Shown here: piece after piece, positions 32,074 to 64,000 of the stretch | Layout: each line of letters starts with the position of its first letter | How positions within the stretch are numbered: position 1 is the first letter of the stretch | Notes under the pieces: generated by a model | Told to the model about the DNA's origin: nothing | The model's input: the letters and a program-made list of their open reading frames with translations, nothing else | The model's database searches: none | Source of the DNA: Planctomycetota bacterium | GTDB lineage: Bacteria; Planctomycetota; MHYJ01; JACPRB01 | Direction: 5' to 3' | DNA: 64,000 nt | NCBI GenBank assembly: GCA_016209705.1 | Contig: JACQVR010000065.1 | Location: 965-64,964 of the forward strand | Position numbers and translations under genes: made by a program

Positions 32074-32126
32074 TGTACTCGCCCGCGGCGGATCGGGAAC
32101 CGGAATTCGGGGCGCGGGCCTCCGGA

Positions 32127-32864: not shown

Positions 32865-34537
32865 CCGAGCCGCCCGTTCAACGCCAGGACGAAACCGGTC
32901 AAGATCAGCATCGCTCCCAGAAGAACGGCCGCCTGGAAGCCCACGGTGGCCGGCATCTCCGATTCCCGCCATCGCCGCCACCCGTGCCGAAAGGCCGCTC
33001 CGGACCGCTCGGACATGGGCGCGAACGCTTCGAGCGTCCGGCCCAGCGCCTCGAGGAGCGCGCCGGTCGGCCGCCGATAGAGCCGGTCCACGTCGCGCGT
33101 CACCGTTGGCTCTCCCCCCAGCTTCGCGCGCAGCAGCCAGAATCCCAAGGCCGTTCCCAGCAGGAGCTGGATCGCCGCCATTATATGTTCCGCCGTGAAC
33201 GGTTCGTAGAAAGCCGCGTGCGGGAGCATCGCGTAGAGCACCTCCGGACTCACTCCGGTCGTCACGCACACCGCCGCCGCCAAGACCATCGCCGCGATCA
33301 TCGAGGCGGGAGCGTCGCGCCGCCGCGCGGGCGCGGGAGCGCCGCCGAAAAAGGTGAACCACGGAAGCTTCAGCCCCGTGTGGAGAAACGTTCCCATGGA
33401 CGCGATTTCCAGCAGCAGCTCTCCGGTCCAGCGCCCCTCGGCGCCGGCCGCGCCGACGATCATCGACTTGCTGACGAATCCGCTGAACAGCGGCACGCCG
33501 GAAATGGAAAACGCGCCGACCGCGTAGCAGGCGAGCGTCACGGGCATCCAGCGTCCCAGGCCTCCCAGCTCCGTGAGCTTCGCGCGTCCGGTCGCGTGAA
33601 TCACCGCTCCCGCGGCCATCAGCAAGAGTCCTTTGTAGAAGATGTGGGAGAAGGCGTGCGCCGCCGTGCCGTTCAGCGCCAGCGCCGTGCCCAGGCCGAC
33701 GCCGCACACCATGTAGCCGACCTGGCTGATGATGTGATATCCCAGCAGCCGCCGGATGTCGTTCTCGAGCACGGCGAAGATGACTCCGTACAGCGCCATC
33801 GCGATGCCGGCTCCCACCAGGAACTCTTCGCCGGGGAAGCACCGGGCGAGCGCATAGACCGCCGCCTTCGTGGTGTAGGCGCTCAGGAAGACGGTCCCCG
33901 CCGGGGTGGAGCGCGGATAAGCGTCCGGCAACCAGGCATGCAGCGGCGGGATCGCCGCGTTGACCGCCATCCCCGCCAGGATCAGCCAGCCCGCCGCGCC
34001 GCGCAGGCCGATTGCCTCGATCGCCGTGGATCCCGACTCGTGCGCATGCAGCAGTACGCCCGCCAGCAGGCAAGCCGCTCCCGCGACATGGAAATAAAGA
34101 TAGCGCAGCCCGGCGGCCAGCGCCGTGCGCGTCCCGCCGGACCAGATAAGGAACAGCGATCCGAGAGTGAGCCCCTCCCAAAACAGGAACAGGGCCAGGA
34201 AATCGCCGGCCAGCGCCGCGCCCACGCCCGAGCCCGCCAGTCCCAGGCCGGCCGCCCGCACGGCCGTCCTCTCTTCGCGCCAGGCATAGACGGCCGCGAC
34301 GCACGCGAAGCCCGCGAACGCCAGCGCGAAAAGGCGGGCGAGCGCGTCCACGCGCAGAAACACGAGCTCGAATCCCAGAACCTCGATGCCCCATCGCGTC
34401 CCCTCCGGGACGAGAAGCACCAGGATCGTTCCTCCCAGCGGGGCGAGGAGCGACAGCGCCCGCTGCGCCGGCGCGCTCACGAAGGGAAGGAGCGCCGCGG
34501 CCAGCAGGAACGGCATCACCGGATGAAGCTCAATCAT
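32861..34537 (-). CDS. NuoL/MrpA-N-domain-like proton-pumping antiporter subunit (558 aa)
   Basis: Complex I L/M/N family membrane pattern; stop overlaps downstream start. Confidence 0.7.
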   Translation of the reverse strand: MIELHPVMPFLLAAALLPFVSAPAQRALSLLAPLGGTILVLLVPEGTRWGIEVLGFELVFLRVDALARLFALAFAGFACVAAVYAWREERTAVRAAGLGLAGSGVGAALAGDFLALFLFWEGLTLGSLFLIWSGGTRTALAAGLRYLYFHVAGAACLLAGVLLHAHESGSTAIEAIGLRGAAGWLILAGMAVNAAIPPLHAWLPDAYPRSTPAGTVFLSAYTTKAAVYALARCFPGEEFLVGAGIAMALYGVIFAVLENDIRRLLGYHIISQVGYMVCGVGLGTALALNGTAAHAFSHIFYKGLLLMAAGAVIHATGRAKLTELGGLGRWMPVTLACYAVGAFSISGVPLFSGFVSKSMIVGAAGAEGRWTGELLLEIASMGTFLHTGLKLPWFTFFGGAPAPARRRDAPASMIAAMVLAAAVCVTTGVSPEVLYAMLPHAAFYEPFTAEHIMAAIQLLLGTALGFWLLRAKLGGEPTVTRDVDRLYRRPTGALLEALGRTLEAFAPMSERSGAAFRHGWRRWRESEMPATVGFQAAVLLGAMLILTGFVLALNGRLG

Positions 34538-34727
34538 CGTCGCCCTCTTCCGGCTTCTGGAGGAACGCGCGGCCGGCGGCTTTCGTCAGGAGCACGACCG
34601 CGACGCACGATGCGAATCCCAGCACCGCATAAAGCGACGGCGCGTGATGGGAGCGCACGAACAAGAGCTCGGCGATGACGGCGAGCCCCGACGCGCCGGC
34701 GAGGATCCACGCGAATCGGTCCCTCAT
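34530..34727 (-). CDS. Small 2-TM membrane protein inside antiporter operon
   Basis: MRDRFAWILAGASGLAVIAELLFV...; ATGA overlap with upstream gene stop. Confidence 0.5.
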   Translation of the reverse strand: MRDRFAWILAGASGLAVIAELLFVRSHHAPSLYAVLGFASCVAVVLLTKAAGRAFLQKPEEGDDD

Positions 34728-36190
34728 GGCGCGCCTCCGAAAATCTGGGCCGCGGCCCGCGCGGCCAGTTCGTACTGGAGGTTGATGACGGCGGGAAGCG
34801 CGCCGAAGACGACCACCAGCGCGGACGTCGCCACCAGCGGTCCCACCATGAGCCCGGGCGCCTCGCGGACGGCGTCATTGGGAGCTGGATCGAAGTACGC
34901 GGCGCGCACGATGGGCAGCAGGTAGGCCGCGGTGAACAGGGATCCACCCAGGAGGATCGCCAAGGGGACCATCTGCGACGCTTCGATCGCGCCGCGCGCC
35001 AGAATGAGCTTGCCCACGAAGCCGCACAAGCCGGGGAAGCCCACCAGCGCCAGCGACGCGACGGTGAACGCGGCGAACGTCCACGGCATGTGCCGGCCGA
35101 GCCCGCCGAGCCGGCTCACGGTTTCCGCGTGCGTGCTCGCGTAGATGGCTCCCGCGCAGAAGAACAGCGTGATCTTCGCGAATCCGTGGTTGACCATGTG
35201 CAGCATCGCGCCCACCGTGCCGTGGGGCGCCAGGAGCGCCGCGCCGAGCACGATCAGCGAAAGGTGCACGACCGTCGAGTAGGCGAGCCGGCGCTTCAGG
35301 TTGTCCTGGCGCAGCGCCGCGATCGATCCGGCGACGACGGTGACGCCGCACGCGGCGATGAGGACCGCCGGCGCGGCCGAGGACGAGAGCGTGTCGGGGC
35401 CGAACACGTATTGGACCATGCGCAGGCATCCGAAGACGCCCGCCTTCACCACCGCGACGGCGTGGAGCAGCGCGCTCACCGGCGTCGGCGCCACCATCGC
35501 GCCCGGCAGCCAGGCATGAAGCGGCATCACCGCCGCCTTGACCCCGTAGCCGATCGCGTAGAGCGCGAAGAGCCCCGCGAGCGCGCCGCCCGCCAGGCGC
35601 GGGGGAAGAAATCCTCCGGGAACGAAATCGAGCGTCCCCGCCAGCATCCACGTCCATGCCGCCGCCGCGGTCAGCGCCAATCCTCCGGTGAGCGCATAGG
35701 CGAGATAGCGCCGCGCGCCGGCCAGGGCCGCGTCCGTCTCCTTGTGCGCCACGAGCGGGTACGTCGCGAGGGTGAGTCCTTCATAGAAGACCAGAAAGGT
35801 GAGAACGTTCCCGGCGAACGCCACGCCCAGCGCGCAGCCGATCGACGCCGCGAAGCACGCGAAGTAGCGACGCCGGTTTTCCAGGCCCATCGCGCGCACG
35901 TAGCCGGAGGAGTAGACGGACGTGACGACCCATAGACCGGCCGCCAGCAACGCGAACGTCAGGCCGAGAGGATCGACCCGGAAGAAGAGATCGACGCCGG
36001 GAAGGAGCCCCATGAGCCGGACTTCCGGAGCGACGCCGGCACGCACCGCCGGCAGCAAGGCGAGCGCCAGCGCCAGCGAGACGCCCGCCGCGGCGTACGT
36101 CCACGCTTCCGCCCCGCGGCGACGTCCCAGATAGATCGCGGCCGCCGCGGCGAACGGTGCCGCCATCGCGCCCAGCACTCTCGGGTCCAT
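34724..36190 (-). CDS. MrpD/NuoN-like antiporter subunit (second copy)
   Basis: Start ATG at 36190 two nt after upstream TAG; NuoL/M/N-family TM pattern (GLWVVTSVYSSGY, MPLHAWLPGAM). The ORF-track upstream extension to 37441 is an R/G-rich artefact. Confidence 0.7.
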   Translation of the reverse strand: MDPRVLGAMAAPFAAAAAIYLGRRRGAEAWTYAAAGVSLALALALLPAVRAGVAPEVRLMGLLPGVDLFFRVDPLGLTFALLAAGLWVVTSVYSSGYVRAMGLENRRRYFACFAASIGCALGVAFAGNVLTFLVFYEGLTLATYPLVAHKETDAALAGARRYLAYALTGGLALTAAAAWTWMLAGTLDFVPGGFLPPRLAGGALAGLFALYAIGYGVKAAVMPLHAWLPGAMVAPTPVSALLHAVAVVKAGVFGCLRMVQYVFGPDTLSSSAAPAVLIAACGVTVVAGSIAALRQDNLKRRLAYSTVVHLSLIVLGAALLAPHGTVGAMLHMVNHGFAKITLFFCAGAIYASTHAETVSRLGGLGRHMPWTFAAFTVASLALVGFPGLCGFVGKLILARGAIEASQMVPLAILLGGSLFTAAYLLPIVRAAYFDPAPNDAVREAPGLMVGPLVATSALVVVFGALPAVINLQYELAARAAAQIFGGAP

Positions 36191-36192
36191 GA

Positions 36193-37659
36193 CTAAACAC
36201 CTCCCGGGATCGCCGCGCGAACGAGGAGCGCCACCACGCGATCGCTGCCCAGCCCCAGCGCCGCCACGCCCCCGCCCAGAAGCGCGCACGCGGCGACCAG
36301 GCCGGCGGGACCCTCGCGCTCCGGGCAGGCTTCGCCGGAACGCGCGAAGTAGAGCCGCTCCACGATGCGGAAGGCATAGAACGCGCTCGCCAAGCTCCCG
36401 GCGACGATCGCGAAAGCCATTCCCGGTCGGCCCGACTCCAGTGCGCCCATCAGGACGTACCATTTCCCGAAGAAGCCGCACAAAGGCGGCAGACCCACGA
36501 GCGAGAAGGCGGCCACGGCCATCGCGGCGGCCGTCCAGGGCGCGCGCGCCCGCACGCGCGCCAGGTCGCCCACCTCGCGCACGCCGAAGCGGTGCGCCAG
36601 CTCGGCCGCGCCCACGAAGAGCGTCGCCTTCATCAGCGCGTCGTTCGCGAGGTGGAGGATCGCGCCCGTCAGCGCCGCCGCGTTGGCCAGACCGATCCCG
36701 AGGACCACCAGACCCATCTGCGAGACGCTCGAGTAGGCCAGCAGCCGGCGCAGATCGGCCTCGCGCGCCGCCAGCAGCGCGCCGGCGATCAACGCGACCG
36801 CTCCCGTCACGCAGAGCAGATCGGCCACGATCGGCGCGCGCCCCAGCCCCGCGGGGCCGTAGACCCAGAACAGGATGCGGATGAGCGCGTAGGCGGAAAC
36901 CTTCGTGACCAGCGGCGCCATGAGCGCCGCGGCCGATAACGGCGCCCGCGCGTAGGCCCCCGGCATCCAGCCGTGCAGGGGAAAGAGCCCCATCTTGATG
37001 GCCAGTCCGCTGATCATGAACGCCAACGCCAGGATCGTCAGGCGCGGATCGGCCCCGGCCGCGATCCGGGCCGCGGCATCGTCCATGTTCAGCGTGCCCG
37101 TGGCCGCGTACACATGACCCACGCCCAGGAGGTACAAGGAGGCGCCCAAGCTGCCGATCACCAGGTACCGCACCGCCGCGCGCGGAGCCCCGCGCCCCCC
37201 GGAGGCCACGAGCGCGTACGCGCTGAGCGAGGCCACTTCGAGGTGAACGAAGAGATTGAAAAGGTCGGCGGAGGCGATCATGCCCATCAGTCCGCTGACC
37301 AGGAGCAGCGCGCAGGTGTTGAATCCGGGCTCGCGCTCGCCGAGCTCCCGCCGCCGCACGTCGCCCAGGGCGCCGTGCACGATCAGCGCCGTCGCCGCCA
37401 CGAACGCGGCCACGAACGCGCTCAGCGCGTCCAACCTCCACTCGATGCCCAGCGGAGGCGCCCAGCCGCCCATATGGGTGACGAGCCGTTCGCCCGCCGC
37501 CGCGAGCGCCGCGCCGGCGAAGGACAGCGCCGCCGTCGCCGCCAGCGCGCCCAGCGCGATCCAGCGCGCCGCGCCCCGCAGGTATCCCCCCAGCGCGCCG
37601 CAGAGGAGCGCGCTCAAGAACGGGACGAGGAACAGGAGGGCCGGCAGGGTGGAGTTCAT
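36193..37659 (-). CDS. mrpD: MrpD/NuoM-like antiporter subunit
   Basis: LFPLHGWMPGAYARAP, multiple TM helices; ATGA coupling to mrpC. Confidence 0.75.
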   Translation of the reverse strand: MNSTLPALLFLVPFLSALLCGALGGYLRGAARWIALGALAATAALSFAGAALAAAGERLVTHMGGWAPPLGIEWRLDALSAFVAAFVAATALIVHGALGDVRRRELGEREPGFNTCALLLVSGLMGMIASADLFNLFVHLEVASLSAYALVASGGRGAPRAAVRYLVIGSLGASLYLLGVGHVYAATGTLNMDDAAARIAAGADPRLTILALAFMISGLAIKMGLFPLHGWMPGAYARAPLSAAALMAPLVTKVSAYALIRILFWVYGPAGLGRAPIVADLLCVTGAVALIAGALLAAREADLRRLLAYSSVSQMGLVVLGIGLANAAALTGAILHLANDALMKATLFVGAAELAHRFGVREVGDLARVRARAPWTAAAMAVAAFSLVGLPPLCGFFGKWYVLMGALESGRPGMAFAIVAGSLASAFYAFRIVERLYFARSGEACPEREGPAGLVAACALLGGGVAALGLGSDRVVALLVRAAIPGGV

Positions 37660-38012
37660 GGTTCCTCCTCCGGCCGGCGCCGCTCCACGATCGATCCTTC
37701 CTCCTCCTGAAGCCGGCGCAGGATCGCCAGCGCCACGCCCAGCGTCGAGACCGCCACCACGATGGCCGTCAACATCAGGGCGTGCGGCAGGGGATTGTTC
37801 AGCGGGCGATCGTCGCCCTCCGCCAGGATAGGCACCGTGGCGCCGTCGCGCACGGCCAGCAGCACGAAGAAGAGGATGATGCCCGACTGCGCGAGCGACA
37901 GGCCGACGATCGTCTTGAATAGATTCTGATGCGTCAGCACGAGGTACAGTCCCAGCATCACCAGGGCGGCATACGGCAGGTACGGTCCGCGCGCGAAGAG
38001 ATAATCGATCAC
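37656..38012 (-). CDS. mrpC: MrpC/NuoK-like small antiporter subunit
   Basis: GTG start at 38012 overlapping upstream TGA; 3 TM ~118 aa. Confidence 0.65.
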   Translation of the reverse strand: MIDYLFARGPYLPYAALVMLGLYLVLTHQNLFKTIVGLSLAQSGIILFFVLLAVRDGATVPILAEGDDRPLNNPLPHALMLTAIVVAVSTLGVALAILRRLQEEEGSIVERRRPEEEP

Positions 38013-38452
38013 GGCGAGACCTCCTTGTCGCCGGCGAGGCTCTGGAAGAGCGAAACCATGACGCCCGCCACCGCCAGCGCCACGCTCGCTTCGACGATGA
38101 GAATGCCCACCCAGCGCCGTTGCGCCGGTTCCAGCGACGGCAAGGGAAGCGCGGCGTAGTCGAGCATCGGCCGGCCGGCCAGCAAGGGGATGGCGGCGAG
38201 CGTCGCGTACGCCAACACGCCCGCCGCGGCCAGTGCCGCCGAGCCGCGCTGGGACAGCATGAGAGACGGAGTCGCGCGCCCGTGCACGAGCATCATCAGG
38301 ATCATCGACGCGCCCAGCAGCACGCCCCCTTGGAAGCCGCCGCCCGGGCTCGTGTGCCCGTGAAAGACCACGTACAGCGCGAAGATCTGGAGGCACGCCA
38401 CGAGCGGGCCCAGGAGGACGCGCAGCATCAGGCTGTCGAAGGGCGCCGTCAT
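38009..38452 (-). CDS. mrpB: MrpB/MnhB antiporter subunit
   Basis: Signature HGHTSPGGGFQGG. Confidence 0.75.
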   Translation of the reverse strand: MTAPFDSLMLRVLLGPLVACLQIFALYVVFHGHTSPGGGFQGGVLLGASMILMMLVHGRATPSLMLSQRGSAALAAAGVLAYATLAAIPLLAGRPMLDYAALPLPSLEPAQRRWVGILIVEASVALAVAGVMVSLFQSLAGDKEVSP

Positions 38453-38976
38453 GGCTTCCTCCCCAGGAGCAGGATGCAGGCCATCGCGGCGGTCAAGATC
38501 ACCGTCGTTTCGATGAGCGTGTCGAAGCTGCGGTAGTCCGCCAGCACGGCGGTCACGACGTTCGGGGTGGCCGTGTCCTGAAGCGCGCGTTCGATATACG
38601 CCGGCGCCACGTGGCGGGTCGGCGCGGACTGGGGATCGCCGAAGGGCGGCAGCGCGTCGATGCCCCAGAGCAGCACGAAGCCGATCGCCCCGACGCCGGC
38701 CAGCGCCGCCGCGCGGGCCAATGGACCCTGGCGGACGACTTCCCGCGGATCGATGCGGCGCAGCAGCGTCATCAGAAGGACCGTCGAGATGCTCGCGCCG
38801 ACGACCGCTTCGGTGAACGCGACGTCGACCGCACCGAGAACCGCCAGGAGCACGGCGATCAGGCCGCTGAACGCCGACAGAAGCGCCATCGTCGCGAAGA
38901 GGTCCCGCACGCGGATGAGCGCGATTCCCAGCGCCACCAGCATGACGCTCAGCAACCCGCCGATATAGGGATTCAT
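38449..38976 (-). CDS. MnhB-related/DUF4040-type membrane subunit (MrpA C-terminal-domain-like, MbhD/E-like)
   Basis: DYRSFDTLIETTVILTA motif; start MNPYIGGLL at 38976 overlapping mrpG stop. Confidence 0.6.
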   Translation of the reverse strand: MNPYIGGLLSVMLVALGIALIRVRDLFATMALLSAFSGLIAVLLAVLGAVDVAFTEAVVGASISTVLLMTLLRRIDPREVVRQGPLARAAALAGVGAIGFVLLWGIDALPPFGDPQSAPTRHVAPAYIERALQDTATPNVVTAVLADYRSFDTLIETTVILTAAMACILLLGRKP

Positions 38977-39287
38977 GATTTCACCTTCGGCGGCGCCCAG
39001 GGAGCATGTCCTGCTTCCATCGCCGCCCGCGCGAGCATGTGGCCCACCAGCGGGCACGTCAGATAAAGAAATCCGATGGCCAGAAGCAGCTTGAACGCCG
39101 TCAGCGAGAAGCCCAGATGGAACGCGGCGCCCAAGAGCACGAGCGGGCCGCCCAGCGTGTCGGTGACCCCCACCACGTGAAGCCGGCAGTAAAGGTCGGG
39201 AAAGCGCACCAAGCCCACGCTGGCCACGAGCTGGAAGAAGAGTCCCGTCGCGAAGAGCCCCGTGCCGATCATCTCCATCGCCGTCAT
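38973..39287 (-). CDS. mrpG: MrpG/MnhG antiporter subunit
   Basis: ~104 aa 3 TM; RLHVVGVTDTLGGPL motif. Confidence 0.65.
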   Translation of the reverse strand: MTAMEMIGTGLFATGLFFQLVASVGLVRFPDLYCRLHVVGVTDTLGGPLVLLGAAFHLGFSLTAFKLLLAIGFLYLTCPLVGHMLARAAMEAGHAPWAPPKVKS

Positions 39288-39550
39288 AGCCCGCCTCTCT
39301 CTTTCACGTACTTGGCCAGCAGCAGCGTCGTCACCAGGTTCAGCAGATAAAACGCCAGCGCGATGTCCACGAACATGTCCGCGCGCGCATAGAGCAGCCC
39401 CACCAGGACCATGAGCACCGCGATTTTCGTTCCGATGCCGTTGAGCGCGACCACGCGGTCGAAGACGGTGGGGCCCGCGATCACGCGTCCCAGGTAAGGG
39501 ATCGCCAGGATGAGCGTCGCCACAGTGGCCGCCAGGAAGACGTGCGTCAT
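39284..39550 (-). CDS. mrpF: MrpF/MnhF antiporter subunit
   Basis: ~88 aa two-TM product MTHVFLAATVATLILAIPYL...; ATGA overlap with mrpE stop. Confidence 0.6.
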   Translation of the reverse strand: MTHVFLAATVATLILAIPYLGRVIAGPTVFDRVVALNGIGTKIAVLMVLVGLLYARADMFVDIALAFYLLNLVTTLLLAKYVKERGGL

Positions 39551-40032
39551 GGGCCGCCTCCCCGAAAGACGCCGCCGACGCGGCGCACGACGTCGCCCGT
39601 CTCGATCTCGCGAGCGGAAACCGGGTCCAGAGCGTGCACCGTCATGAGGTCCGGAGCGATGTCCAGCGTCACGGTGCCGGGCGTCAACGTGATGGAGCAC
39701 CCCGCCAGCGTGAGGGCGCGCTCATCGGAGAGGCTGGGCACGGCGCGCACCACGCGCGGCGCCAGGGAAGCGCGCGGGGCGAGCGCCAACCGCGCCACCC
39801 GGAGGTTGGACTTGAGCACTTGCCAGAGCAGCCAGGGCACATAACCCGCGAAGCGTCCCAGCGGGAAACGCTCGTCCGTGCGCGGGCGGGCCAGGAACGC
39901 GACTCCCAGCGCCGCCGCTCCCCCGGCGCCCAGGTGAAGGACGTCCATCTTGCCCGATAGCAGAATCCAGATCCCCCAGAGGAAGCCGGCGATGGTCAGG
40001 AACCGAAGCAAGCGCATGGTCTTTCCTTTCAT
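39547..40032 (-). CDS. mrpE: MrpE/MnhE antiporter subunit
   Basis: LTLAGCSITLTPGTVTLDIAPD motif typical of MrpE; start MKGKTMRLL. Confidence 0.65.
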   Translation of the reverse strand: MKGKTMRLLRFLTIAGFLWGIWILLSGKMDVLHLGAGGAAALGVAFLARPRTDERFPLGRFAGYVPWLLWQVLKSNLRVARLALAPRASLAPRVVRAVPSLSDERALTLAGCSITLTPGTVTLDIAPDLMTVHALDPVSAREIETGDVVRRVGGVFRGGGP

Positions 40033-55818: not shown

Positions 55819-56103
55819 GTGATCCGCTCGTTCCGGAATGCAGAGACCGAGCGGGTGTTTTCGGGAATTCGATCGAGGAGCTTTCCTCCGGAGATTCAGC
55901 GCGCGGCCTTGAGAAAGTTGATCATGATCCACCGTTCCGGGACCCTTGCGGACCTTCGCGTTCCGCCGGCCAATCGGCTCGAAAAGCTTTCCGGTGGACG
56001 GAAGGGTCAATATTCTATTCGGATCAACGATCAATGGCGCGTTTGCTTTCGCTTTCAGGAGGGAGACGTTTGGGACGTGGAGATCGTTGACTATCACGCA
56101 TAA
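55819..56103 (+). CDS. higB: HigB-type toxin (RelE/ParE superfamily, plasmid-maintenance killer)
   Basis: GTG start; PANRLEKLSGGRKGQYSIRINDQWRVCFRFQEGDVWDVEIVDYH. Confidence 0.8.
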   Translation: MIRSFRNAETERVFSGIRSRSFPPEIQRAALRKLIMIHRSGTLADLRVPPANRLEKLSGGRKGQYSIRINDQWRVCFRFQEGDVWDVEIVDYHA

Positions 56104-56115
56104 GAAAGAAGAGCC

Positions 56116-56442
56116 ATGGCCAAGAGGAATCAAACGCCGCACGGCTTTCTGGATCCCATCCATCCGGGAGAAATCCTCATCGAGGAGTTCCTCAAGCCGA
56201 TGGGACTGTCGCAGTACCGCTTGGCCAAGGACCTGAGGATTTCGCCCATGCGGGTCAGCGAGATCGTGCGCGGTCGGAGAAGCATCAGCCCGGCCACCGG
56301 GCTTCTCCTCTCCCGGTATTTCGGGATGTCGGAATCCTTTTTTCTCGGCCTTCAAGAGGAATACGACCTTCGCAGGGCCAAGCAGGACGCTCAGGTGAAG
56401 AAAGCCTTGGCACGGATCCGGCCGATTCGACATGTGGGATAA
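56116..56442 (+). CDS. higA: HigA-type antitoxin (XRE-family HTH)
   Basis: IHPGEILIEEFLKPMGLSQYRLAKDLRISPMRVSEIVRGRRSISPATGLLLSRYFG. Confidence 0.8.
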   Translation: MAKRNQTPHGFLDPIHPGEILIEEFLKPMGLSQYRLAKDLRISPMRVSEIVRGRRSISPATGLLLSRYFGMSESFFLGLQEEYDLRRAKQDAQVKKALARIRPIRHVG

Positions 56443-56454
56443 ACTTCTTGGGGG

Positions 56455-56721
56455 GTGGACATGAACCCGTGCGCTTTGGACGAGCTTGAAAAGATGGCCC
56501 AGGGCAATCGACGATTCGGAGCCCGGCTGCGCATCGTTTCCGGAATCGGCCTCATCCTTTTCGGACTTGCCTTGTCCGTTGGGTGCGGCGCGATGCTGAT
56601 CGATACGGTGACCCACACCGGCTTTCAGGCCGGCTCATCAATCGCCTTCTTTGGCCTGGGCGCGCTTCTCGGCCTCGCCTCGTTGATCGGCGGCGTGCGA
56701 CTGCTCCGTGGCCGCCTCTGA
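56455..56721 (+). CDS. Small two-TM membrane protein (hypothetical)
   Basis: LRIVSGIGLILFGLALSVGCGAMLI ... IAFFGLGALLGLASLIGGV. Confidence 0.4.
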   Translation: MDMNPCALDELEKMAQGNRRFGARLRIVSGIGLILFGLALSVGCGAMLIDTVTHTGFQAGSSIAFFGLGALLGLASLIGGVRLLRGRL

Positions 56722-56836
56722 TGACCGACATGGCGGGGCCGTGAGCTTCCCGCGCATCGTCGGTCTGCCAATCCTTGACCCGGCGGATGCCACCGGACAG
56801 TCTATCCGTAGGTTAAATGACCTACATAAAGGTGAC

Positions 56837-57124
56837 ATGAAGTTCGCCAACGTGCGCGAGTTGAAGATCAACTCGAACTCCATTCTGAAAGACCTGGCCG
56901 AAGAAGACGTGGTGATCACCAACCGGGGCAAACCGGTGGCGGCGGTGATTTACATGGACGAAGACCTTCTGGATTCCTTCGTCCTCTCCCATCACCCCGC
57001 CTTGCTGAGGAGCATTGAGAGGGACGTCCGGCGCTGGAAGCGCGGGAAGCTGCGTCCGTACACGCTCGAGGAAGCCAAAGCCCGTTTGCTTCGCCGCCGA
57101 ACTCGACGAACCCGCCGCCGATGA
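56837..57124 (+). CDS. Phd/YefM-family antitoxin
   Basis: ATG 56837 with aaaggtga RBS; MKFANVRELKINSNSILKDLAEEDVVITNRGKPVAAVI. Confidence 0.75.
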   Translation: MKFANVRELKINSNSILKDLAEEDVVITNRGKPVAAVIYMDEDLLDSFVLSHHPALLRSIERDVRRWKRGKLRPYTLEEAKARLLRRRTRRTRRR

Positions 57125-57441
57125 AGCCGGTACAGGAGATCCTTCTCTTTCCCAAGGCGGTGCGGGACCTGGAGAAGCTGGATCAAAAGTACACCCGGCA
57201 AGTCCTGGAGGACGTGGAGCTGCTGCGCAACGATCCCTGGCCGGCCGGAAAAATCAAGAAGCGTCGCGGCACGCCGCTCTGGGAAATCAAGACCGGAGAT
57301 TATCGCAGTTTGTTCCTTCTGGAGCCGAAACGAGCGGTCATCGCCCGAGGGGTCAACCGCAAGACGCTTGAAGCCGCCGTCAAATCTTTCGACATAAGAT
57401 ACGTGCTGGATTGGCTGCGCCGCCAGGAAGGCAAAGCGTAG
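57121..57441 (+). CDS. RelE/ParE-family toxin
   Basis: ATGA overlap with antitoxin; KIKKRRGTPLWEIKTGDYRSLFLLEPKRAVIARGVNRK. Confidence 0.7.
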   Translation: MKPVQEILLFPKAVRDLEKLDQKYTRQVLEDVELLRNDPWPAGKIKKRRGTPLWEIKTGDYRSLFLLEPKRAVIARGVNRKTLEAAVKSFDIRYVLDWLRRQEGKA

Positions 57442-57462: not shown

Positions 57463-58305
57463 TCACAACCCGAGAAGAGATCCCGGATCGCCCAGGAAGA
57501 ACTCCTCCAGCGGCACGCCCTCGCGGCCGACGATCAAGACGCGCGACCAGGGAAAGCGTTTCCGGAACGCCGCCAAGCCGCCGAGGCGCCCCGGGCGGCC
57601 GCTTTTGACCTCCACTCCCACGCGTTCGCGGCCGGCTTGGACGACATAATCCACTTCATCGTTCCGCTCGCGCCAGGTGCCGATCGCGAACCGCGGCGGC
57701 GACAGCGCGTTGAGAAGATGCGCCCCGACCGCGTTCTCGACGAGCCGGCCCCAAAAGGCCGGGTCCTCCTGCGCTTCGGCGAGCGTGAGACCGGAAAGGG
57801 CGCTCACGAGCGCGTTGTTCCAGAAAACGATCTTCGGGCTTGAACCCCGCCGGCGGTCGCGGCCGGACATGCGTTCCAACCCCGAAACGAGAAAGGAAGC
57901 CTCGAGAAGCCGCAGATAGTGCGCCAGCGTCACCGTGTTGCCCGCATCGTGGAGCGTTCCGAGCATCTTGTTGAACGACAGGATCTCGGCTGGATGCTGC
58001 GCGGCCAGGCCGAACAGGTGCCGCAGAAGCATCGGCTTGCCGACCTGTTGGAGCGAAAGCACGTCGCGCGCGATGGCGGTTTCCACGAGCGCGTCGGCGA
58101 TGTAACGCCGCCACGCCTCCTCATCGCGGATCATCGGAGCGGCGCCGGGATAGCCGCCGAAGAAGAGCCATCGCTCCAGGTTCCATCCGAACGCCTCTCG
58201 GCATTCCCGATACGACCAATGCGGGCCGCGGTGCATATAGAAACGCCCGGCGAGGCTCTCCGTGAGTCCTTTCTGCACGAGCAACGCCGAAGAACCGAGC
58301 AGCAA
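57463..58305 (-). pseudogene. 5'-truncated DUF4143-family AAA ATPase (N-terminal P-loop region missing), adjacent to IS transposase
   Basis: Begins at GSSALL...ESLAGRF block; C-terminal DEVDYVVQAGRERVGVEVKSG DUF4143-like; no Walker A. Confidence 0.45.
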
Positions 58306-58459
58306 AGGCCGGATCGGGGCTTTCTCGCGGCGATCCTCCTCCCACAGCGCCTTGACGGCCTCGCTCCAGCCCTGTATCCCGCCGCTGATTCGTCTTCAGA
58401 TTTAAGGGGGCCGCGCCGCCGGCCCTGGGCGATACGCGAAGGGCACAGCATCCTCCGGA

Positions 58460-59641
58460 TTAGCGATGGACCTGGACCCAGGCGGGCATGAGGAGGTCCA
58501 AGGGTGGCGATTCTACTTCTTGGCTCCAAAGCAAGAGCACGGCGAGCGCTTGGCGAAAAATCCCCAACTCCGGGCCTCCGTTTCGGTCCTGCGTCACCTG
58601 CCGCAGGCGCTCGGCGGTCGTTTGAACCTGCCCCTCCAGCACGACGAAGACGTAATACAATCCCACCACTGCCACCAACCGTTTCAGCCCCTCTTCGTTC
58701 TTTAGTTGGTGAGCGGCCAGATCCAACATGGATTTTAAGTCCTTGAAAAGCTCCTCTTCCTTAAACCTTTTCGCGTACCAGTCCGCGGCCTCACTGAGCT
58801 CGGCCCGGTTCGTGGCCAGATACCAGGTGTCATCGCTGGGGTCGTTGGCCTCAAGCGCCGGAAGTCGCCGAATCGCCACGTGGAGGTTCTTTTGGTGTTC
58901 CTGGGTATAGGCGACGTTGGAGTAGCTCCGGCTCTCTCCCGGACCGATCGGGAGGTTTTGAAGTTCTACCCACTGGCCGGCGATCCGAACGAAAGCATCT
59001 CGATGCAATCGAATGACGTACGAGGCCTCCGCTTTTTCGATCGCCTCGAACAGCTCGGTCTTGGCAAACCCTCGATCCGCCAAGATCACGATCCGATGCC
59101 GAAGCTCCGGTGAGAGCCACCCCAAGAAGCGTTCTACCAATTCGATCTCTAGATCGGTCATCATGTTCTGAAGGTATCCTTCCGCCACGACCTGCACAGC
59201 CAACGGCAAGGCTCGCCCGTGATAGGGCAACGCGATCACTAGGCCCCAGAAGCCTTTACCCAGCTTGGTCCAGTCCAGCGTCACCAGGATCGGCCCCTTC
59301 TGCTCGGGAGCATCCCGGGGGTCCAAGAGGTGATGCGTTTGAGCTTCCCACAGTTCTTCCGCTTCGAAGACGCTGCGGGTCAGAAATCGCCAGATGCGGA
59401 ACTTCTTATATCGGAAGCTGTACGATCGCTTCGTTCCGTTTGGCTCGACCTGATAGAGCCACAGCCGCCGCGCCCACGCCGACAGGTTCGGCTCTTGAAC
59501 CTGAGCCAGAGCCCACATCAGAAGGCTCAGCGTCTTGACGGCACTGCGATGAACCCTGGACAAAACCCGTTCGGAGTATTTCATTATGGGCAAGGTCAGT
59601 GCTCTCATTTTCCTCTCCCTCTCTCTCGTTCCAGACTCCAA
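58460..59641 (-). mobile_element. IS4/IS701-like DDE transposase gene (IS element; ends not defined)
   Basis: DDE region IVILADRGFAKTELFEAI; YLATNRAELSEAADWYAKRF; ~390 aa. Confidence 0.65.
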
Positions 59642-59926
59642 GAGAGGGAGGGGATTTTTTTCTACCCCGATTCGCTCGGCTCAATCGCCTGAACCGCAAG
59701 CGGGACAACTGCTTGGACACGTCAGAGAACAGCCGCCCAAGAGAAAGAAGAGAGAGAAGAAAGAGAAGTTCCATCGGCAGCGATCGAGGCCCCCTCCCTC
59801 TCGCCCCGCCTTCGAGTATACCCTAAACTGGCGCAGGCGGGCGGCGCGGCCCCCCTCCCCGTGAAACTGAAGTCGAGTCAGATGCACTCATCGAAGGCCT
59901 GGAGGGACTCGCCGCGGATGGCGGAC

Positions 59927-60544
59927 TCACCATAGATCGGTATAATGACGCTGATTCTCATCCAGCAACTCGAGATCGTCGGCCTCATCCACGTCGCGCT
60001 CCGGCGGAAGCAATTTCCATGTATATCCTTTGGACCGGAGACGGTCCAGCGTCGCCTGGAGAACCCCGTCAGTGCCCCACGGGATGCCTGCGAACGCGTC
60101 AAGCTGGAGGCGCGAGGCGATGAGGTAATAACCGCCGTCCGGGCAGGGCCCCAACGCCGCATCGACGCTCCGCGCAGCCTCGAAGGCCTCTTCCACTCGA
60201 GCCTCCGTGAGGGACGGAATGTCGCTGCCGGCGATCGCCGCCACCTCATGTCGTTGAAGCAGGATCCGCAAGCAGTCCGCGAGGCGATTCGAAAGATCTC
60301 CATCCGCTTGAGGGAGAGTTGGTACTTCATACGCTCGGGCGAACTCGACCGCCCGGTTTCCGGGGTCGACGAACACCACGAAATCGTAGGATCGGCCGAC
60401 GTGTTCCTGGATCTGACTTTTCAAAATGTCTTCGTAAACCCGACAGGCCGCATTCGCGCCGATCCGGGCGGCAAGACGGGTCTTCACTTTCCCCGGCTCC
60501 GGATACCGGGCGAAGAGCGCCAGAACGTGGCCATTCAACAACAT
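59927..60544 (-). CDS. DUF2064-family nucleotidyltransferase-fold protein (rSAM/selenodomain-associated transferase 1, TIGR04282-like)
   Basis: VLALFARYPEPGKVKTRLAARIGANAACRVYEDIL N-terminus typical of DUF2064; start overlaps upstream gene stop. Confidence 0.6.
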   Translation of the reverse strand: MLLNGHVLALFARYPEPGKVKTRLAARIGANAACRVYEDILKSQIQEHVGRSYDFVVFVDPGNRAVEFARAYEVPTLPQADGDLSNRLADCLRILLQRHEVAAIAGSDIPSLTEARVEEAFEAARSVDAALGPCPDGGYYLIASRLQLDAFAGIPWGTDGVLQATLDRLRSKGYTWKLLPPERDVDEADDLELLDENQRHYTDLW

Positions 60545-63009
60545 TCACCTCCAGGGGCGCAGCACCGGAACTCCGCATGCGATGCCGCGTCGAAAACCAC
60601 GAAATGGTCCCGGTACGGGGGTTCCGACAACTTGGCGGCCGTATCCGTGCAAACTTCCACCGCTTCGTTCCTCGGGAAGAGGTGGCCTTCTTCGTCCATG
60701 ACGGACTGGTAGGGCCCCAGATACGCGGCCCACTGCCCCAAGAACTTGCAACCTTCCTTTTTCTCGAACTTGAAACCCCGCACCGAGACGGAGTAGAACT
60801 TGATGCCCTCGACTTCCTTCCAGTACGTCTTCTCGAGCAGCGTGATCCCGTAAAATCCGGCGCGCTCCAGTTCCGCCGAAAATTCCTCGGTCGTGAGCGC
60901 ACCGCCCAAGCATTGGCCTCGGAATTCTGGATCGTTCTCGAGCCGCGCCGGGACCCGGCGGTCCGCGACGATGTCGGACACGACGATCCGGCCGAAATTC
61001 CTCAGGACCCGCCACATCTCCCGGAACACCCGCTTCTTATCCGGCGAGAGATTGATCACGCAATTCGACAAGACTACGTCGGCGGTCCGGTCCGGCAGCG
61101 GAATTTCTTCAAGGTATCCTTTCCGGAACTCCACATTGGGGTATCCCAGCCGCCGCGCCACGATGTCCGCGCTGCGCCGCGCCCTTTCCAGCATGAGATC
61201 TGTCATATCGATGCCGTAGACCCGGCCTTTCGGGCCGACTTTTTTCGAGGCGATAAAACAATCGATGCCGCCGCCGGACCCGAGATCCACGACCGCCTCG
61301 CCGGCCACCAGGCCGGCGATCGCCACCGGGCTGCCGCAGCCGTAGAAGACGTCCAGCACCTCCTGCGGGATGTGCGCCGTATCCTCTTTGGAGTAACTCT
61401 TCGGACAGCACAGCTCTTTCTGCGGCTTCTCCGCCGCGGTCGAATAAAATTCCCGGACGGGCCGGCGGGCCGCGTCGAGATCGACCGAAAGAACGCACGC
61501 CGAGCGTCCCAGCGCCACGCCGGTTCCGTCTTCATCCGCACACACCCTCAAACCGTCGCCTCGACCGGAATACGGCACCGGACGGTGGAAGCCGGTCTTC
61601 GGTCCCCGCATGGTTTCGCGGCAAAGCTCTTCCATGGCGTCGTAGTACGATTGCTTGTAAAGCTCGCAGTACGGATCGAGATGCGCCATGCGCTCCACGC
61701 CGGATCCGGAATCCGCGTGCGCGTAGCTGTGTTCGATGTCGCCGCCGCCGCAGACGAAACGGATCGGGCATTCACGACATACGGGCTTCTTCACGACCGT
61801 CAACGCGCGAATCGCGCGCAACACCGGAGAGTCCAGCCAGATGTTTCGAAGTGGCTGTTCCAGCACGCTGCCGCACCGCAGGTCCGGCGCATTTGCGAGC
61901 GCCGCGGAAGGATAGACGTGGCCGTCCGAGTAGACGCACATGCTTTCGAAGCCGGCGTTGGAGAGGTCATATCGCACCGATCGGTCGGATCCGGCGCGCA
62001 ACCGGAATGCCTCCCAGTTGTCGACGATAATCCCGCTCTCGCGCGCGGCGACCCGCGCTTGGCGCAACGTTTCCAATGCGTCCTGCGCGGAAAGGCTGTA
62101 GTCGTCGGTGGAATCCATCGCCCGCCCCCGCTTGTGCGGCCACAGCAAGTGGTGGGTTTTCGCCCCGAGCTGCGCGACTAGGCGCGTGATCCGGGGGACG
62201 TCGGCGGCGTTCCGGCGGCAGACCGCCGTGGTCACGACCACATCGAAACCTTCTCGCACCGCCGTCCGGATGCCGTCGCAAATCCCCTGAAACGTTCCTT
62301 TGCCGCGAATCGGGTCGTTGGACGCGGCGTCCGCCCCATCCAGACTGATTTGCAGACCCAGCCGCCCGCGGTCGCAGGCGCGGAGCGCTTCCAGCCGCTT
62401 TCCGCTGAAGAGCAGGCCGTTGGTCAGGATGATCAGACGAGCCCGCGACGTCGCGTGGCGGATGAGCTCGAAGAGATCCGGCCGCACGAAGGGCTCGCCG
62501 CCCGTGAAAAAGACCAGCTCCACGCCGAGTTCGAACGCTTGGTCAAGGACATCTTTCACGCGCTCCGCCGGCAATCCGCGGTCGCCGTCCGGACCAGAGC
62601 CGACCAGACAATGGGCGCATTTCAAGTTGCACGAGTTGTTGGTGTGCACCCAAAGCTCCCGCAACCGGGTCGGCGCGAGGGCCTCATCCCTACCGCCATG
62701 GAAGCGGCCGTTGATCCGCTCCCGCCCGATCAAACCACGCCGCTCCAGGTGGCTGAAAAAGGTCGCGGCGTGCAACTGGGCCTCGTGAGGCGCCAGGCTC
62801 CGGCGTTGCGCGTACAAGGTGGCCACTTCGCCGAACGCGCGGTTCCCGTCAACCAGCTCCAGCAGCTCCGCGCCGCGCGCATCGCTTCCGATCCAGTTTC
62901 CCCGCTCCGGGTCCAGAAAGAGCGCGACTCCGTCTCGATCGACCCGGACCATATCGGGGCGATGCACGACTTGTCTGGCCTCTATCGTTTTCATGACGTC
63001 CCTCTTCAT
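60535..63009 (-). CDS. Fusion protein: N-terminal radical SAM + SPASM/twitch domain, C-terminal ArsM-type As(III) S-adenosylmethionine methyltransferase (~824 aa)
   Basis: r[11 protein letters not shown] + FFTGGEP; SPASM-like [19 protein letters not shown]; ArsM hallmarks CCPKSY...[61 protein letters not shown]-terminal CCAPGGECC; start MKRDVMK at 63009 (or MKTIEA 62994); the rest of the ORF-track frame 60535..63630 is R-rich artefact. Confidence 0.75.
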
Positions 63010-64000
63010 TTCAAAATGGCAGCCATGATGGCGGACATGACTCCCGCGGCGGGCAACGTGACGATCCAGGCCAGCGCGATAGAGACGACAGCCTTCCGCC
63101 GGAGGCGATGGGTCGCCGTTCCCAATCCAAAAAGCGATCCGCATGAGACGTGCGTCGTCGAAACCGGCAGACCATACCTGGATGCGAGCGCGGTCAAGGC
63201 CGCCGTCACTAGGTTGGCCGTGATTCCCTGTCCGTGATTCATTTCGGTGATCTTTTTCGCCATGGTTTCGGCAACCCGCCTCGCTTGAAGGAGGGCTCCG
63301 AGCGCGATCGCCAATCCGACTACGACGGTCGAGGAGCCCACATCGAGCGCCCGTGCGGCCAGCAGCAGAGCGACGATCTTGGGGGTGTCGTTGAGGCCCC
63401 GCGCGAACGAAACGGCCCCGGCGCTTACGACATGGCCCGTGTCCAGGGCGCTTTGCGCATCGATCGAGAAGAGAGTTCCCTGATATCGGTCCTGGCACAC
63501 TGTCAAGGTCGGGACACCGGAGGCCGCTTGGGTTCGCCCGCTTGCGAGAACCGCCACGGGAACCCATCGCTCTCCGACGCAGATGCATGTCTCGCGGCGC
63601 ACGCCCATGCGAACCCGCAGAGAACGACATAGTGGATAGAGAACCAGGGTCAGCGCCGCCGCGGCCAGGGGTGAGATCAATAATGGGAGAAAGAATTTTG
63701 CCCCAAGCATCGAGAAACGGACATCTCCCTGTGCCAGGACCAGTCCCGCTCCCGTAAGCGCGCCGATCAACGCGTGGGTGGTCGAGATGGGAAAAGACAG
63801 AAGCGTCGCCAGGATCACCGTAAGAGCCGCTGAAAGACCGACGGCGGTAGCGAAGGTCGAGGCTCCCGCCACCTCATCGGGGACGAGTCCCGCGCCGCTG
63901 AACGTTTTGACCAGCTCTCCGGCGAAAAGGAAAGCAACGGCGGATCCCGCCAACGTGCAGAACGTTCCCCACGCGAGGGCCATCCCATAGCGTGTGGTCC
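63006..64000 (-). CDS. PiT-family inorganic phosphate (arsenate?) transporter, 5' end beyond window
   Basis: GLNDTPKI and PVSTTH PHO4-family motifs; the N-terminal GANDVAN repeat is not yet present, implying the gene continues past position 64000; stop overlaps rSAM-ArsM start (ATGA). Confidence 0.7.
   Translation of the reverse strand, partial: TTRYGMALAWGTFCTLAGSAVAFLFAGELVKTFSGAGLVPDEVAGASTFATAVGLSAALTVILATLLSFPISTTHALIGALTGAGLVLAQGDVRFSMLGAKFFLPLLISPLAAAALTLVLYPLCRSLRVRMGVRRETCICVGERWVPVAVLASGRTQAASGVPTLTVCQDRYQGTLFSIDAQSALDTGHVVSAGAVSFARGLNDTPKIVALLLAARALDVGSSTVVVGLAIALGALLQARRVAETMAKKITEMNHGQGITANLVTAALTALASRYGLPVSTTHVSCGSLFGLGTATHRLRRKAVVSIALAWIVTLPAAGVMSAIMAAILK

Follow-up and report, generated by a model that had tools for sequence, protein, structure and literature searches.

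What does an enzyme make in which a radical S-adenosylmethionine (SAM) domain and an arsenite methyltransferase of the ArsM type are joined in one chain? This question is raised by the right end of a 64,000-nucleotide (nt) stretch of DNA from a Planctomycetota bacterium (GenBank assembly GCA_016209705.1, contig JACQVR010000065.1, positions 965 to 64,964), hereafter referred to as the window, where three intact reading frames lie head to tail on the minus strand and encode a PiT-family anion transporter, the fusion protein and a DUF2064 transferase. A first-pass annotation, made by a model from the letters of the DNA, had read these genes as a candidate module for organoarsenical biosynthesis. 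Here, domain identities, conserved residues, a conserved gene neighbourhood, and the mutual exclusion of ArsS and the fused radical SAM module were established by comparison with other genomes. With modest confidence, we favour the reading that the fusion protein is a bifunctional organoarsenical synthase and that its operon is a trimmed arsenosugar-type pathway.

Results

A fusion family in at least six phyla

In a word-indexed protein search, more than 120 proteins matched the fusion protein with 47–74% identity over 94–100% of its length. They come from Planctomycetota (with Scalindua and Brocadiaceae among them), Nitrospirota, Zixibacteria, Acidobacteriota, and Thermodesulfobacteriota; the full-length homologues span at least 6 phyla, which rules out a chance or mis-assembly fusion. 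A scan of one genome per GTDB species gave at least ~34 fusion loci, and also brought in Nitrospinota, Wallbacteria, Gemmatimonadales, Desulfocapsa, Electrothrix, and others. One group of fusions, clade B (L023–L032; Thermodesulfobacteriota, Desulfocapsa, and Electrothrix), comprises proteins of ~1030–1120 residues with 32–38% identity, whose extra C-terminal domain resembles the "metal-binding double selenoprotein MbdU" (127–159 bits).

The homologues bear only the names "methyltransferase domain-containing protein" or "radical SAM protein with SPASM domain", and no NCBIfam equivalog model covering the family was found. The first-pass annotation had supposed that the fusion was undescribed, and full-text searches of the literature, with subscription-only papers outside their scope, gave no description of it. 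The family is widespread, unnamed, and apparently undescribed.

A predicted complete ArsM at the C-terminus

The C-terminal ~300 residues of the fusion protein are predicted to be a complete ArsM (residues are numbered throughout in the 824-residue frame). The Pfam model Methyltransf_31 matched residues 569–717 with 110 bits (cut-off 27), and the SAM-binding motif DLGSGGG is present. A phmmer search of the PDB returned CmArsM (4FR0/4KW7, E = 1.5e-46), as well as CrArsM (5EVJ) and human AS3MT (8XT7). When an AlphaFold2 (AF2) model, built from 65 homologues (mean predicted local distance difference test score, pLDDT, 85; predicted template-modelling score, pTM, 0.84), was compared with solved structures by Foldseek, the top 13 matches were all ArsM/AS3MT structures, aligned over 284–302 columns with 32–37% identity; the best of them was 4RSR (E = 9.5e-25, 36% identity, ~290 columns). 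The model also contains the extra beta-rich C-terminal domain that is typical of ArsM.

All four arsenic-binding cysteines, part of the ArsM hallmarks that the first-pass annotation had claimed, align with those of CmArsM and CrArsM. Counted in the phmmer alignment to 4FR0/4KW7, C558 (in YGCGSP), C650 (in an 11-residue motif of that annotation), and C700 correspond to C72, C174, and C224 of CmArsM, respectively, a register that is confirmed by the C72A mutant entry 5EG5. C535, which forms the CCPKSY motif together with C534, falls on the TSAC cysteine of CrArsM 5EVJ, the equivalent of C44 in CmArsM. C700, in GQCLGGAL, is the fourth ArsM cysteine and had not been listed before. The four As(III)-site cysteines, the SAM-binding glycines, and many further positions were invariant among the 65 homologues, and the window protein ends in a flexible tail of the form CCxxxxxCC (C816/C817/C823/C824).

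A UbiE/COQ5-type methyltransferase without the ArsM cysteines, which the first-pass annotation had named as the finding that would speak against it, was also considered and rejected, as the Ubie_methyltran model gave 44.6 bits compared to up to 243 for the ArsM models, and all of the ArsM cysteines are present.

The radical SAM half resembles peptide maturases in structure

The N-terminal half passed the Pfam cut-offs for both domains that had been annotated in it, radical SAM and SPASM. Radical_SAM (PF04055) matched residues 125–263 with 79.9 bits (cut-off 29.5), and strands and helices alternate over residues 118–290 of the AF2 model, as in a radical SAM core. The cluster motif CNLKCAHC (C127-x3-C131-x2-C134) is accompanied by GGEP at 170–173, and C127, C131, and C134, as well as G170-G171-E172, were invariant among the 65 homologues. 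The invariance of CX3CX2C and GGE suggests real radical SAM catalysis.

Upstream of this core, a domain absent from the first-pass annotation was found. The Pfam model PqqD (PF05402) matched residues 32–94 with 22.2 bits (E = 1.8e-4), just below its cut-off of 23.4, and PqqD is recorded as a precomputed match in some homologues. In the AF2 model, residues 13–90 form three strands followed by three helices, as in the recognition elements (RREs) of ribosomally synthesized and post-translationally modified peptides (RiPPs), so that a PqqD/RRE-like assignment would fit the beta3-alpha3 topology. A sequence search of the PDB gave BlsE, PqqE, and SkfB as the nearest solved relatives of the radical SAM half, and in the Foldseek comparison the ArsM structures were followed by the RRE-bearing maturases SkfB and SuiB and then by anSME, BlsE, and PqqE. 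The SkfB and SuiB alignments covered ~400–460 columns (SkfB, E = 6e-18), and anSME reached a target-normalised TM score of 0.75.

The SPASM model matched residues 352–415 with 28 bits (cut-off 21.5), and the AF2 model has a SPASM-like region, followed by a linker (450–517) of lower confidence; the last 15 residues are disordered. The cysteines of this region, C358, C379, C411-x2-C414-x5-C420-x3-D424, and C448, were compared with the seven-cysteine pattern CX9-15GX4C...CX2CX5CX3C...C. Asp424 stands in place of the fourth cysteine of CX2CX5CX3C and lies within an invariant GGGD(I)EH motif (421–427). Among species representatives, C411, C414, C420, and C448 were kept or lost together, being present as a set in 62% of clade A and in 0 of clade B. 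This all-or-none behaviour fits one dispensable auxiliary cluster, and at most one canonical auxiliary cluster would be assured in the window protein. Outside this set, two cysteines, C358 and C505, show no variation in clade A, and a third, C490, varies very little there.

The GGGDxEH motif occurred in 42 of the 150 best relatives of the radical SAM half (representatives of 50%-identity clusters). Thirty of these carriers are fused to ArsM, and most of the other 12 look like fragments; the motif was present in none of the complete, ~450-residue stand-alone maturase-like relatives that were individually inspected. Since the motif tracks the ArsM-fused proteins, it is a putative signature of this arsenic-linked subfamily.

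A diverged ArsS was rejected as the identity of the radical SAM half, since the ArsS model TIGR04167 (cut-off 300 bits) was outside the 25 best NCBIfam matches. In tblastn comparisons, a true ArsS domain scored 36–55 bits against the fusion, through the generic core only, and 150–607 bits at true ArsS loci. The radical SAM half has no homology to ArsS or ArsL beyond the superfamily core.

The fused module takes the place of ArsS in a shared neighbourhood

Gene neighbourhoods were compared by clustering of all open reading frames (ORFs) and by tblastn at 37 fusion loci and 46 ArsM-only loci, with flanks of up to 10 kb, and neighbours were named by NCBIfam searches of representatives and from Pfam-annotated contigs. 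PiT was the commonest conserved neighbour of the fusion (14 of the 37 loci), and was followed by TIGR04282 (DUF2064) and a flavin adenine dinucleotide (FAD) oxidoreductase of the PRK06370.1-3 type (9 each), by the TIGR04283 GT2, DUF547, and TVP38/VTT (8 each), and by DUF3047 (3). With DUF3047 left out, 21 of the fusion loci had one or more of the six shared accessory genes.

The same accessory set surrounds ArsM at loci where it stands beside ArsS (L041, L043, L045, L046, L052, L060, and L061), and TIGR04167 gave 403–415 bits at the ArsS-linked ArsM loci where it was scored. Among the loci with TIGR04282 or TIGR04283, ArsS was found in the fetched flanks of 0 of 10 fusion loci, whereas it was found in those of 8 of 10 ArsM-only loci (Fisher p = 7e-4, an optimistic value as the loci are related). 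These results indicate that the fused module of RRE-like, radical SAM, and SPASM-type domains occupies the place of ArsS in the shared neighbourhood, and they support the view that a different radical SAM lineage, fused to ArsM, would have displaced ArsS.

The arsenic resistance genes arsR, acr3/arsB, and arsC were found in none of the seven Pfam-annotated fusion neighbourhoods. In the window, arsR, arsC, and acr3 were likewise absent from the checked large ORFs at 32–58 kb, which by Pfam encode a sigma-54 activator, a GntR-aminotransferase, a pyridoxal-phosphate decarboxylase, an Mrp-type antiporter subunit, a DUF4143 ATPase, and a transposase. Clustering of 811 small ORFs located up to 1.5 kb from the fusion at 36 loci brought out no conserved small ORF that could be a RiPP precursor; the recurring clusters were antisense shadows of PiT, the MbdU-like domain, a pyr-redox gene, or DUF2064.

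Two further kinds of neighbour were seen at single or few loci. In a Zixibacteria genome (L085, 8054–8665; 1 of the 37 loci), a PNP_UDP_1 nucleoside phosphorylase lies directly upstream of PiT and the fusion, and would fit the removal of adenine from an adenosyl-arsenical. In two unrelated genomes, bufferin-type sets (BufA1/MbnB_TglH_ChrH/HvfC_N; L083, 2894–4969, and L087, 17117–19066) lie 5–8 kb from the fusion and adjoin MerA-like oxidoreductases; they could represent a shared metal-stress island.

ArsM is joined to radical SAM partners in at least three architectures

In addition to the family described here, a genuine ArsS–ArsM fusion was found in an Omnitrophota single-cell genome (L045; 719 residues; TIGR04167 403 bits, cut-off 300), with a TIGR04282 gene directly after it and FAD oxidoreductase and TVP38 genes before it. 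Fusions of the reverse order, ArsM followed by radical SAM/SPASM, are represented by P0152 (705 residues) and P0158 (681 residues). These reverse-order fusions (P0152, P0158; L084, 8001–10118) have a short N-terminal ArsM and a C-terminal radical SAM/SPASM part. Upstream of P0152 lie genes for a GT2, C_GCAxxG_C_C, LPG_synthase_TM, and a VTT-domain protein, which hints at a membrane- or lipid-linked product. In all, ArsM occurs fused to radical SAM enzymes in three or more distinct architectures.

The stand-alone ArsM of L033, which adjoins ArsS (415 bits) and TIGR04282, is 57% identical to the ArsM domain of the window protein and, in a neighbour-joining tree drawn with no support values, branches from within the fusion clade. 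In an alphaproteobacterial cluster (L070), which contains a TVP38–DUF547 fusion, an FAD oxidoreductase, ArsM, a TIGR04283-like GT2, and DUF2064, a third radical SAM type was found (12259–13194, minus strand, 311 residues; best NCBIfam match Rv1681-like with 89 bits; ArsS 54 bits), suggesting that the radical SAM slot of the pathway has been filled several times.

Layout of the locus in the window

The features of the locus are listed in Table 1. The stop codon of PiT and the ATG at 63009 share the bases ATGA, and the gap to the alternative start at 62994 is 11 nt, so that the translational coupling of the two genes described by the first-pass annotation holds in either form; the sequence features which it had listed for the 824-residue fusion are likewise all present where it had placed them on the minus strand. 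The ATG at 62994 is preceded at 5 nt by GAGGG, a Shine-Dalgarno-like motif, and agrees with the NCBI model P0001 (819 residues) and with the N-termini of the homologues. Because all three fit this start, the 819-residue product seems likelier than the 824-residue product. The start of DUF2064 (60544) runs 10 nt into the fusion stop. Whichever fusion start applies, PiT, the fusion, and DUF2064 form a predicted, tightly coupled operon.

Table 1. Features at the right end of the 64,000-nt window
Feature	Positions	Strand	Extent and basis
PiT/PHO4-family anion transporter gene	63006–64000	-	3' part only; stop TGA at 63006–63008
Fusion gene (RRE-like + radical SAM + SPASM + ArsM)	60535–63009	-	824 residues (ATG at 63009) or 819 residues (ATG at 62994)
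PqqD/RRE-like winged-helix domain, N-terminal	62725–62973	-	residues ~13–95; Pfam PqqD, AF2 model, Foldseek
Radical SAM core	62110–62658	-	residues ~118–300; cysteine motif at 62608–62631
SPASM/twitch-type auxiliary domain	61660–61974	-	residues ~346–450; Pfam SPASM
Inter-domain segment with C490 and C505	61459–61659	-	residues 451–517; conservation, pLDDT 66–81
Predicted complete ArsM-type As(III) SAM methyltransferase domain	60538–61458	-	residues 518–824; phmmer/PDB, Foldseek, NCBIfam
DUF2064/TIGR04282 (CofC-like) transferase gene	59927–60544	-	205 residues; NCBIfam, Pfam
TIGR04283-like GT2 remnant	59878–59961	-	27 codons; tblastn
IS4-type insertion sequence	58406–59854	-	19-nt terminal inverted repeats and DDE transposase (58460–59641)

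The upstream gene, annotated earlier as a PiT-family transporter, matched Pfam PHO4 with 182 bits (cut-off 33.7). It is cut by the end of the window, with ~34 N-terminal codons lying beyond 64000, and is 62% identical to the PiT beside the closest homologue of the fusion, residue 35 of which aligns with position 63998. Models for particular substrates were not passed (CysP-like sulfate permease, 93 versus 400 bits; PitA, 65 versus 800 bits), so that phosphate, arsenate, and sulfate are all candidate substrates. The downstream protein, annotated as DUF2064 of the type associated with radical SAM enzymes, matched Pfam DUF2064 with 79.6 bits (cut-off 25.8) and exceeded the cut-off of TIGR04282 (153.3 versus 134 bits; residues 8–191 over positions 1–189 of the 189-position profile), the NCBI name of which is "arsenosugar biosynthesis glycosyltransferase".

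The three-gene arrangement that the first-pass annotation had regarded as novel is present, but is the remnant of a larger conserved cluster in which the next gene, a GT2, has been reduced to a stub. Around the closest homologue (P0002, 74% identical to the window fusion), the order is DUF3047, DUF547, FNR-like reductase, PiT, fusion, DUF2064, and GT2; the GT2 that follows DUF2064 is intact in L083, and the two are fused in the contig of P0005, another close relative. The window retains no more than the first 27 codons of the GT2 (59961–59878), which read MRISVIIPIYGESAIRGESLQAFDECI and then a stop. The stub matched residues 1–30 of the GT2 in the cluster of the closest relative (tblastn, 53% identity, E = 7e-5), and the remainder was not found anywhere in the window by tblastn. 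The terminal inverted repeat of the IS4-type element begins 24 bases past the stub; its repeats (58406–58424 and 59836–59854, 19 nt) are 95% complementary, and its transposase matched Pfam DDE_Tnp_1. The GT2 gene is truncated by this element, and the three-gene set of the window is a trimmed form of the longer conserved cluster.

On the same side, a DUF4143 ATPase gene (57463–58305, minus strand; Pfam) abuts the insertion sequence, and two toxin-antitoxin-like pairs were recognized by eye on the plus strand, one HigB-like/HigA-like (55819–56442) and one Phd-like/RelE-like (56708–57441). With these genes and the insertion sequence nearby, the cluster borders a mobile or accessory region. Farther to the left, the G+C content of 32000–40000 (0.68–0.72) is clearly above that of the rest of the window, with a strong positive AT skew of up to 0.31; among the long minus-strand ORFs of this segment are those for an Mrp/NADH-quinone-oxidoreductase-type antiporter subunit and a small-multidrug-export-domain protein.

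Discussion

Proposed mechanism

The two halves of the fusion protein probably work one after the other on a single arsenic substrate to make an organoarsenical, an idea that gains support from the replacement of ArsS by the fused radical SAM module and from the joining of ArsM to radical SAM partners in at least three architectures. What follows is inferred, from the sequence of reactions and the radical acceptor to the product and the part played by PiT. PiT would import arsenate, which would be reduced elsewhere. The ArsM domain would bind As(III) on C535, C558, C650, and C700 and methylate it with SAM, most likely to dimethylarsenite. The trivalent, thiol-bound arsenical would be handed to the radical SAM site within the same chain, for which the flexible CC...CC tail and the conserved C358, C490, and C505 are candidate hand-off residues. 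A [4Fe-4S] cluster on C127, C131, and C134 would then cleave a second SAM molecule, and the resulting carbon radical would add to arsenic to form a third C–As bond, with the electron taken back by the auxiliary cluster (C411/C414/C420/C448), where present, or by the radical SAM cluster.

ArsS adds a 5'-deoxyadenosyl radical to trivalent dimethylarsenic, DMAs(III), to give 5'-deoxy-5'-dimethylarsinoyl-adenosine (DDMAA), and the arsenic-centred radical gives an electron back to the cluster (PMC13598754). ArsS clusters have the same presumed downstream enzymes, and for this reason the most likely product of the fusion protein would be DDMAA or a close analogue; that its radical SAM step is specifically an ArsS-like 5'-deoxyadenosylation is put forward tentatively. 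Further processing of this product would fall to the CofC-like TIGR04282 enzyme and to the TIGR04283 GT2. More speculatively, phosphorolysis of the adenosyl-arsenical, nucleotidyl activation by TIGR04282, and transfer by the GT2 could follow, and the membrane proteins TVP38 and DUF547 could handle a lipid-linked product.

Points against the proposal and alternative readings

Several observations weigh against this proposal. The ArsM domain fell narrowly short of the general arsenite methyltransferase model PRK11873 (243.5 versus 263 bits), as did the stand-alone relative in L033 (252.9 versus 263 bits), and far short of the models for arsenosugar ArsM (NF038099, 153 versus 400 bits) and arsinothricin ArsM (NF040538, 189.7 versus 500 bits). 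The radical SAM half resembles ArsS at the superfamily level only, and its C-terminal domain is unlike that of ArsS. Peptide maturases are its closest relatives by structure, and it retains an RRE-like domain that has no role in the proposed mechanism. The auxiliary-cluster cysteines are gone in ~38% of clade A and in clade B, and the auxiliary cluster would thus not be essential to the shared chemistry; clade B lacks the CC pair as well. Sixteen of the 37 fusion loci have no accessory gene within 10 kb, the absence of ArsS from fusion loci holds for the fetched flanks and not for whole genomes, the Fisher test was applied to related loci, and the "arsenosugar" names of TIGR04282 and TIGR04283 are based on genome context. 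Finally, with its GT2 destroyed, the pathway in this genome may be incomplete or decaying.

In one alternative reading, the radical SAM half would be a RiPP/anSME-type maturase of a peptide, of a partner protein, or of the enzyme's own Cys-rich tail, with the ArsM half methylating the modified, thiol-rich substrate or loading it with arsenic and with no small-molecule C–As bond made by the radical SAM half. The PqqD/RRE-like domain, the fit of its fold, and the structural matches to SkfB, SuiB, anSME, and PqqE speak for this reading, as do the many ~450-residue stand-alone relatives that resemble ordinary maturases and the apparent retention of an RRE-like segment in P0158, where the StsB model matches from profile position 25. 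We nevertheless regard it as quite unlikely, since no conserved small ORF accompanies the fusion within 1.5 kb at 36 loci, the conserved neighbours are sugar/nucleotide transferases and a transporter rather than peptidases or ABC exporters, and the family can do without the SPASM cysteines that are typical of maturases. In addition, ArsS, a proven small-molecule enzyme, stands at this position in sister clusters and is itself found fused to ArsM. Little weight is likewise given to two further proposals, namely that the RRE-like domain is functional and that arsenic or a C–As bond is placed on a peptide- or protein-bound substrate, or, less radically, that the SPASM-type radical SAM half forms the C–As bond with some carbon unit that is not 5'-deoxyadenosyl.

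Arsenic resistance is an established function of ArsM by itself, and the fusion protein might serve detoxification only, with ArsM methylating As(III) for volatilisation or export and the radical SAM/Fe-S half in support, by supplying electrons for disulfide re-reduction, by sensing redox state or oxygen, or by demethylation. Such a role would suit the nearly half of fusion loci that lack transferase neighbours, the recurrence of FAD-dependent disulfide-reductase-like genes, and the occurrence of the family in anaerobes and microaerophiles. It is difficult to reconcile with an uptake-type PiT, with the invariance of the SAM-cleaving motifs, with the lack of arsR, acr3/arsB, and arsC in the annotated neighbourhoods examined, and with a neighbourhood common to ArsS clusters, and we consider it improbable. 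The main uncertainty within the favoured model, that of a bifunctional synthase, lies in the order of the steps, the carbon unit, or the metalloid. Both halves could share a metalloid substrate and yet perform another chemistry, with the radical SAM step first as in ArsL, with a different carbon unit, or with Sb, Se, or Te. A radical SAM half unrelated to ArsS beyond the core and carrying a unique GGGDxEH motif, an ArsM domain that scores higher with the arsinothricin model than with the arsenosugar model (190 and 153 bits, both well below cut-off), the additional MbdU-like metal-binding domain of clade B, and the precedent of ArsL, in which the radical SAM enzyme acts first (bioRxiv 10.1101/2024.02.01.577332), all point in this direction. 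Conversely, the presence of TIGR04282 and TIGR04283 as in ArsS clusters suggests the same or a very similar intermediate, and a site of four cysteines is what marks ArsM as an arsenic enzyme; a different chemistry or metalloid is judged unlikely.

Significance

To our knowledge, ArsS and ArsL are the only makers of non-methyl C–As bonds, each of them a radical SAM enzyme with ArsM as its partner. The fusion family would be a third, evolutionarily independent solution, contained in one chain with ArsM. It was found in environmentally important lineages, namely anammox Planctomycetota, Nitrospirota, Acidobacteriota, and relatives of cable bacteria, which we do not know as arsenosugar producers. 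If the proposal is true, more organisms of anoxic sediments, groundwater, and soils would be known to produce complex organoarsenicals, and the fusion would offer a natural system for passing toxic, oxidation-prone methylarsenite between active sites. The roles of TIGR04282, TIGR04283, DUF547, TVP38, and the MerA-like oxidoreductase would also become directly testable. Were the peptide or protein reading true instead, the family would provide the first case of arsenic in a ribosomal natural product or in a post-translational modification, and were another carbon unit transferred, a new class of organoarsenicals would exist in anammox bacteria, Nitrospirota, and Acidobacteriota. A family annotated until now only as "methyltransferase domain-containing protein" is also flagged here as radical SAM–ArsM.

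Comparison with known systems

The fusion protein shares with the paired enzymes ArsM and ArsS the coupling of an ArsM-type methyltransferase to a radical SAM enzyme and the accessory genes TIGR04282, TIGR04283 GT2, FAD oxidoreductase, DUF547, TVP38, and sometimes PiT; moreover, a stand-alone ArsM of its own clade (L033) is paired with ArsS. It differs from them in that its radical SAM half has no TIGR04167 match beyond the generic core, is covalently joined to ArsM, and carries RRE-like N-terminal and SPASM-type domains, whereas ArsS has a Cys/Sec-rich DUF3641-type domain. The ArsS–ArsM fusion of L045 has the same order, radical SAM at the N-terminus and ArsM at the C-terminus of one chain, and also ends in CC, but it carries a true ArsS as its radical SAM half (403 bits), and its ArsM falls in the ArsS-linked clade of the neighbour-joining tree and not in that of the window protein.

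In arsinothricin biosynthesis, C–As bond formation by the radical SAM enzyme ArsL and methylation by ArsM likewise concern the same arsenic atom, and Cys-rich arsenite-binding segments are involved; ArsL binds arsenite on its Cys-rich C-terminal tail and forms the C–As bond before methylation by ArsM (bioRxiv 10.1101/2024.02.01.577332). Unlike the fusion protein, ArsL is separate from ArsM, lacks both SPASM and RRE, and has an RCCLKC tail; it transfers a 3-amino-3-carboxypropyl group, and the model for the arsinothricin ArsM is failed by the ArsM domain of the window protein (190 versus 500 bits).

The maturases SkfB, SuiB, PqqE/PqqD, anSME, and MftC resemble the N-terminal half in fold and in its predicted order of RRE-like, radical SAM, and SPASM-type domains. 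The fusion differs from these maturases in having no precursor peptide gene nearby (within 1.5 kb, at 36 loci), in the Asp that replaces the fourth Cys of CX2CX5CX3C within the invariant GGGDxEH, in the dispensability of its auxiliary-cluster cysteines, and in its joining to ArsM within an arsenosugar-type neighbourhood.

The reverse-order fusions P0152 and P0158 combine the same two enzyme types, their radical SAM half is 35–36% identical to that of the window protein, and P0152 has GT2 and VTT-domain neighbours. Their domain order is opposite, their short ArsM lacks the C-terminal domain, and the exact GGGDxEH motif is absent; they probably represent an independent fusion event.

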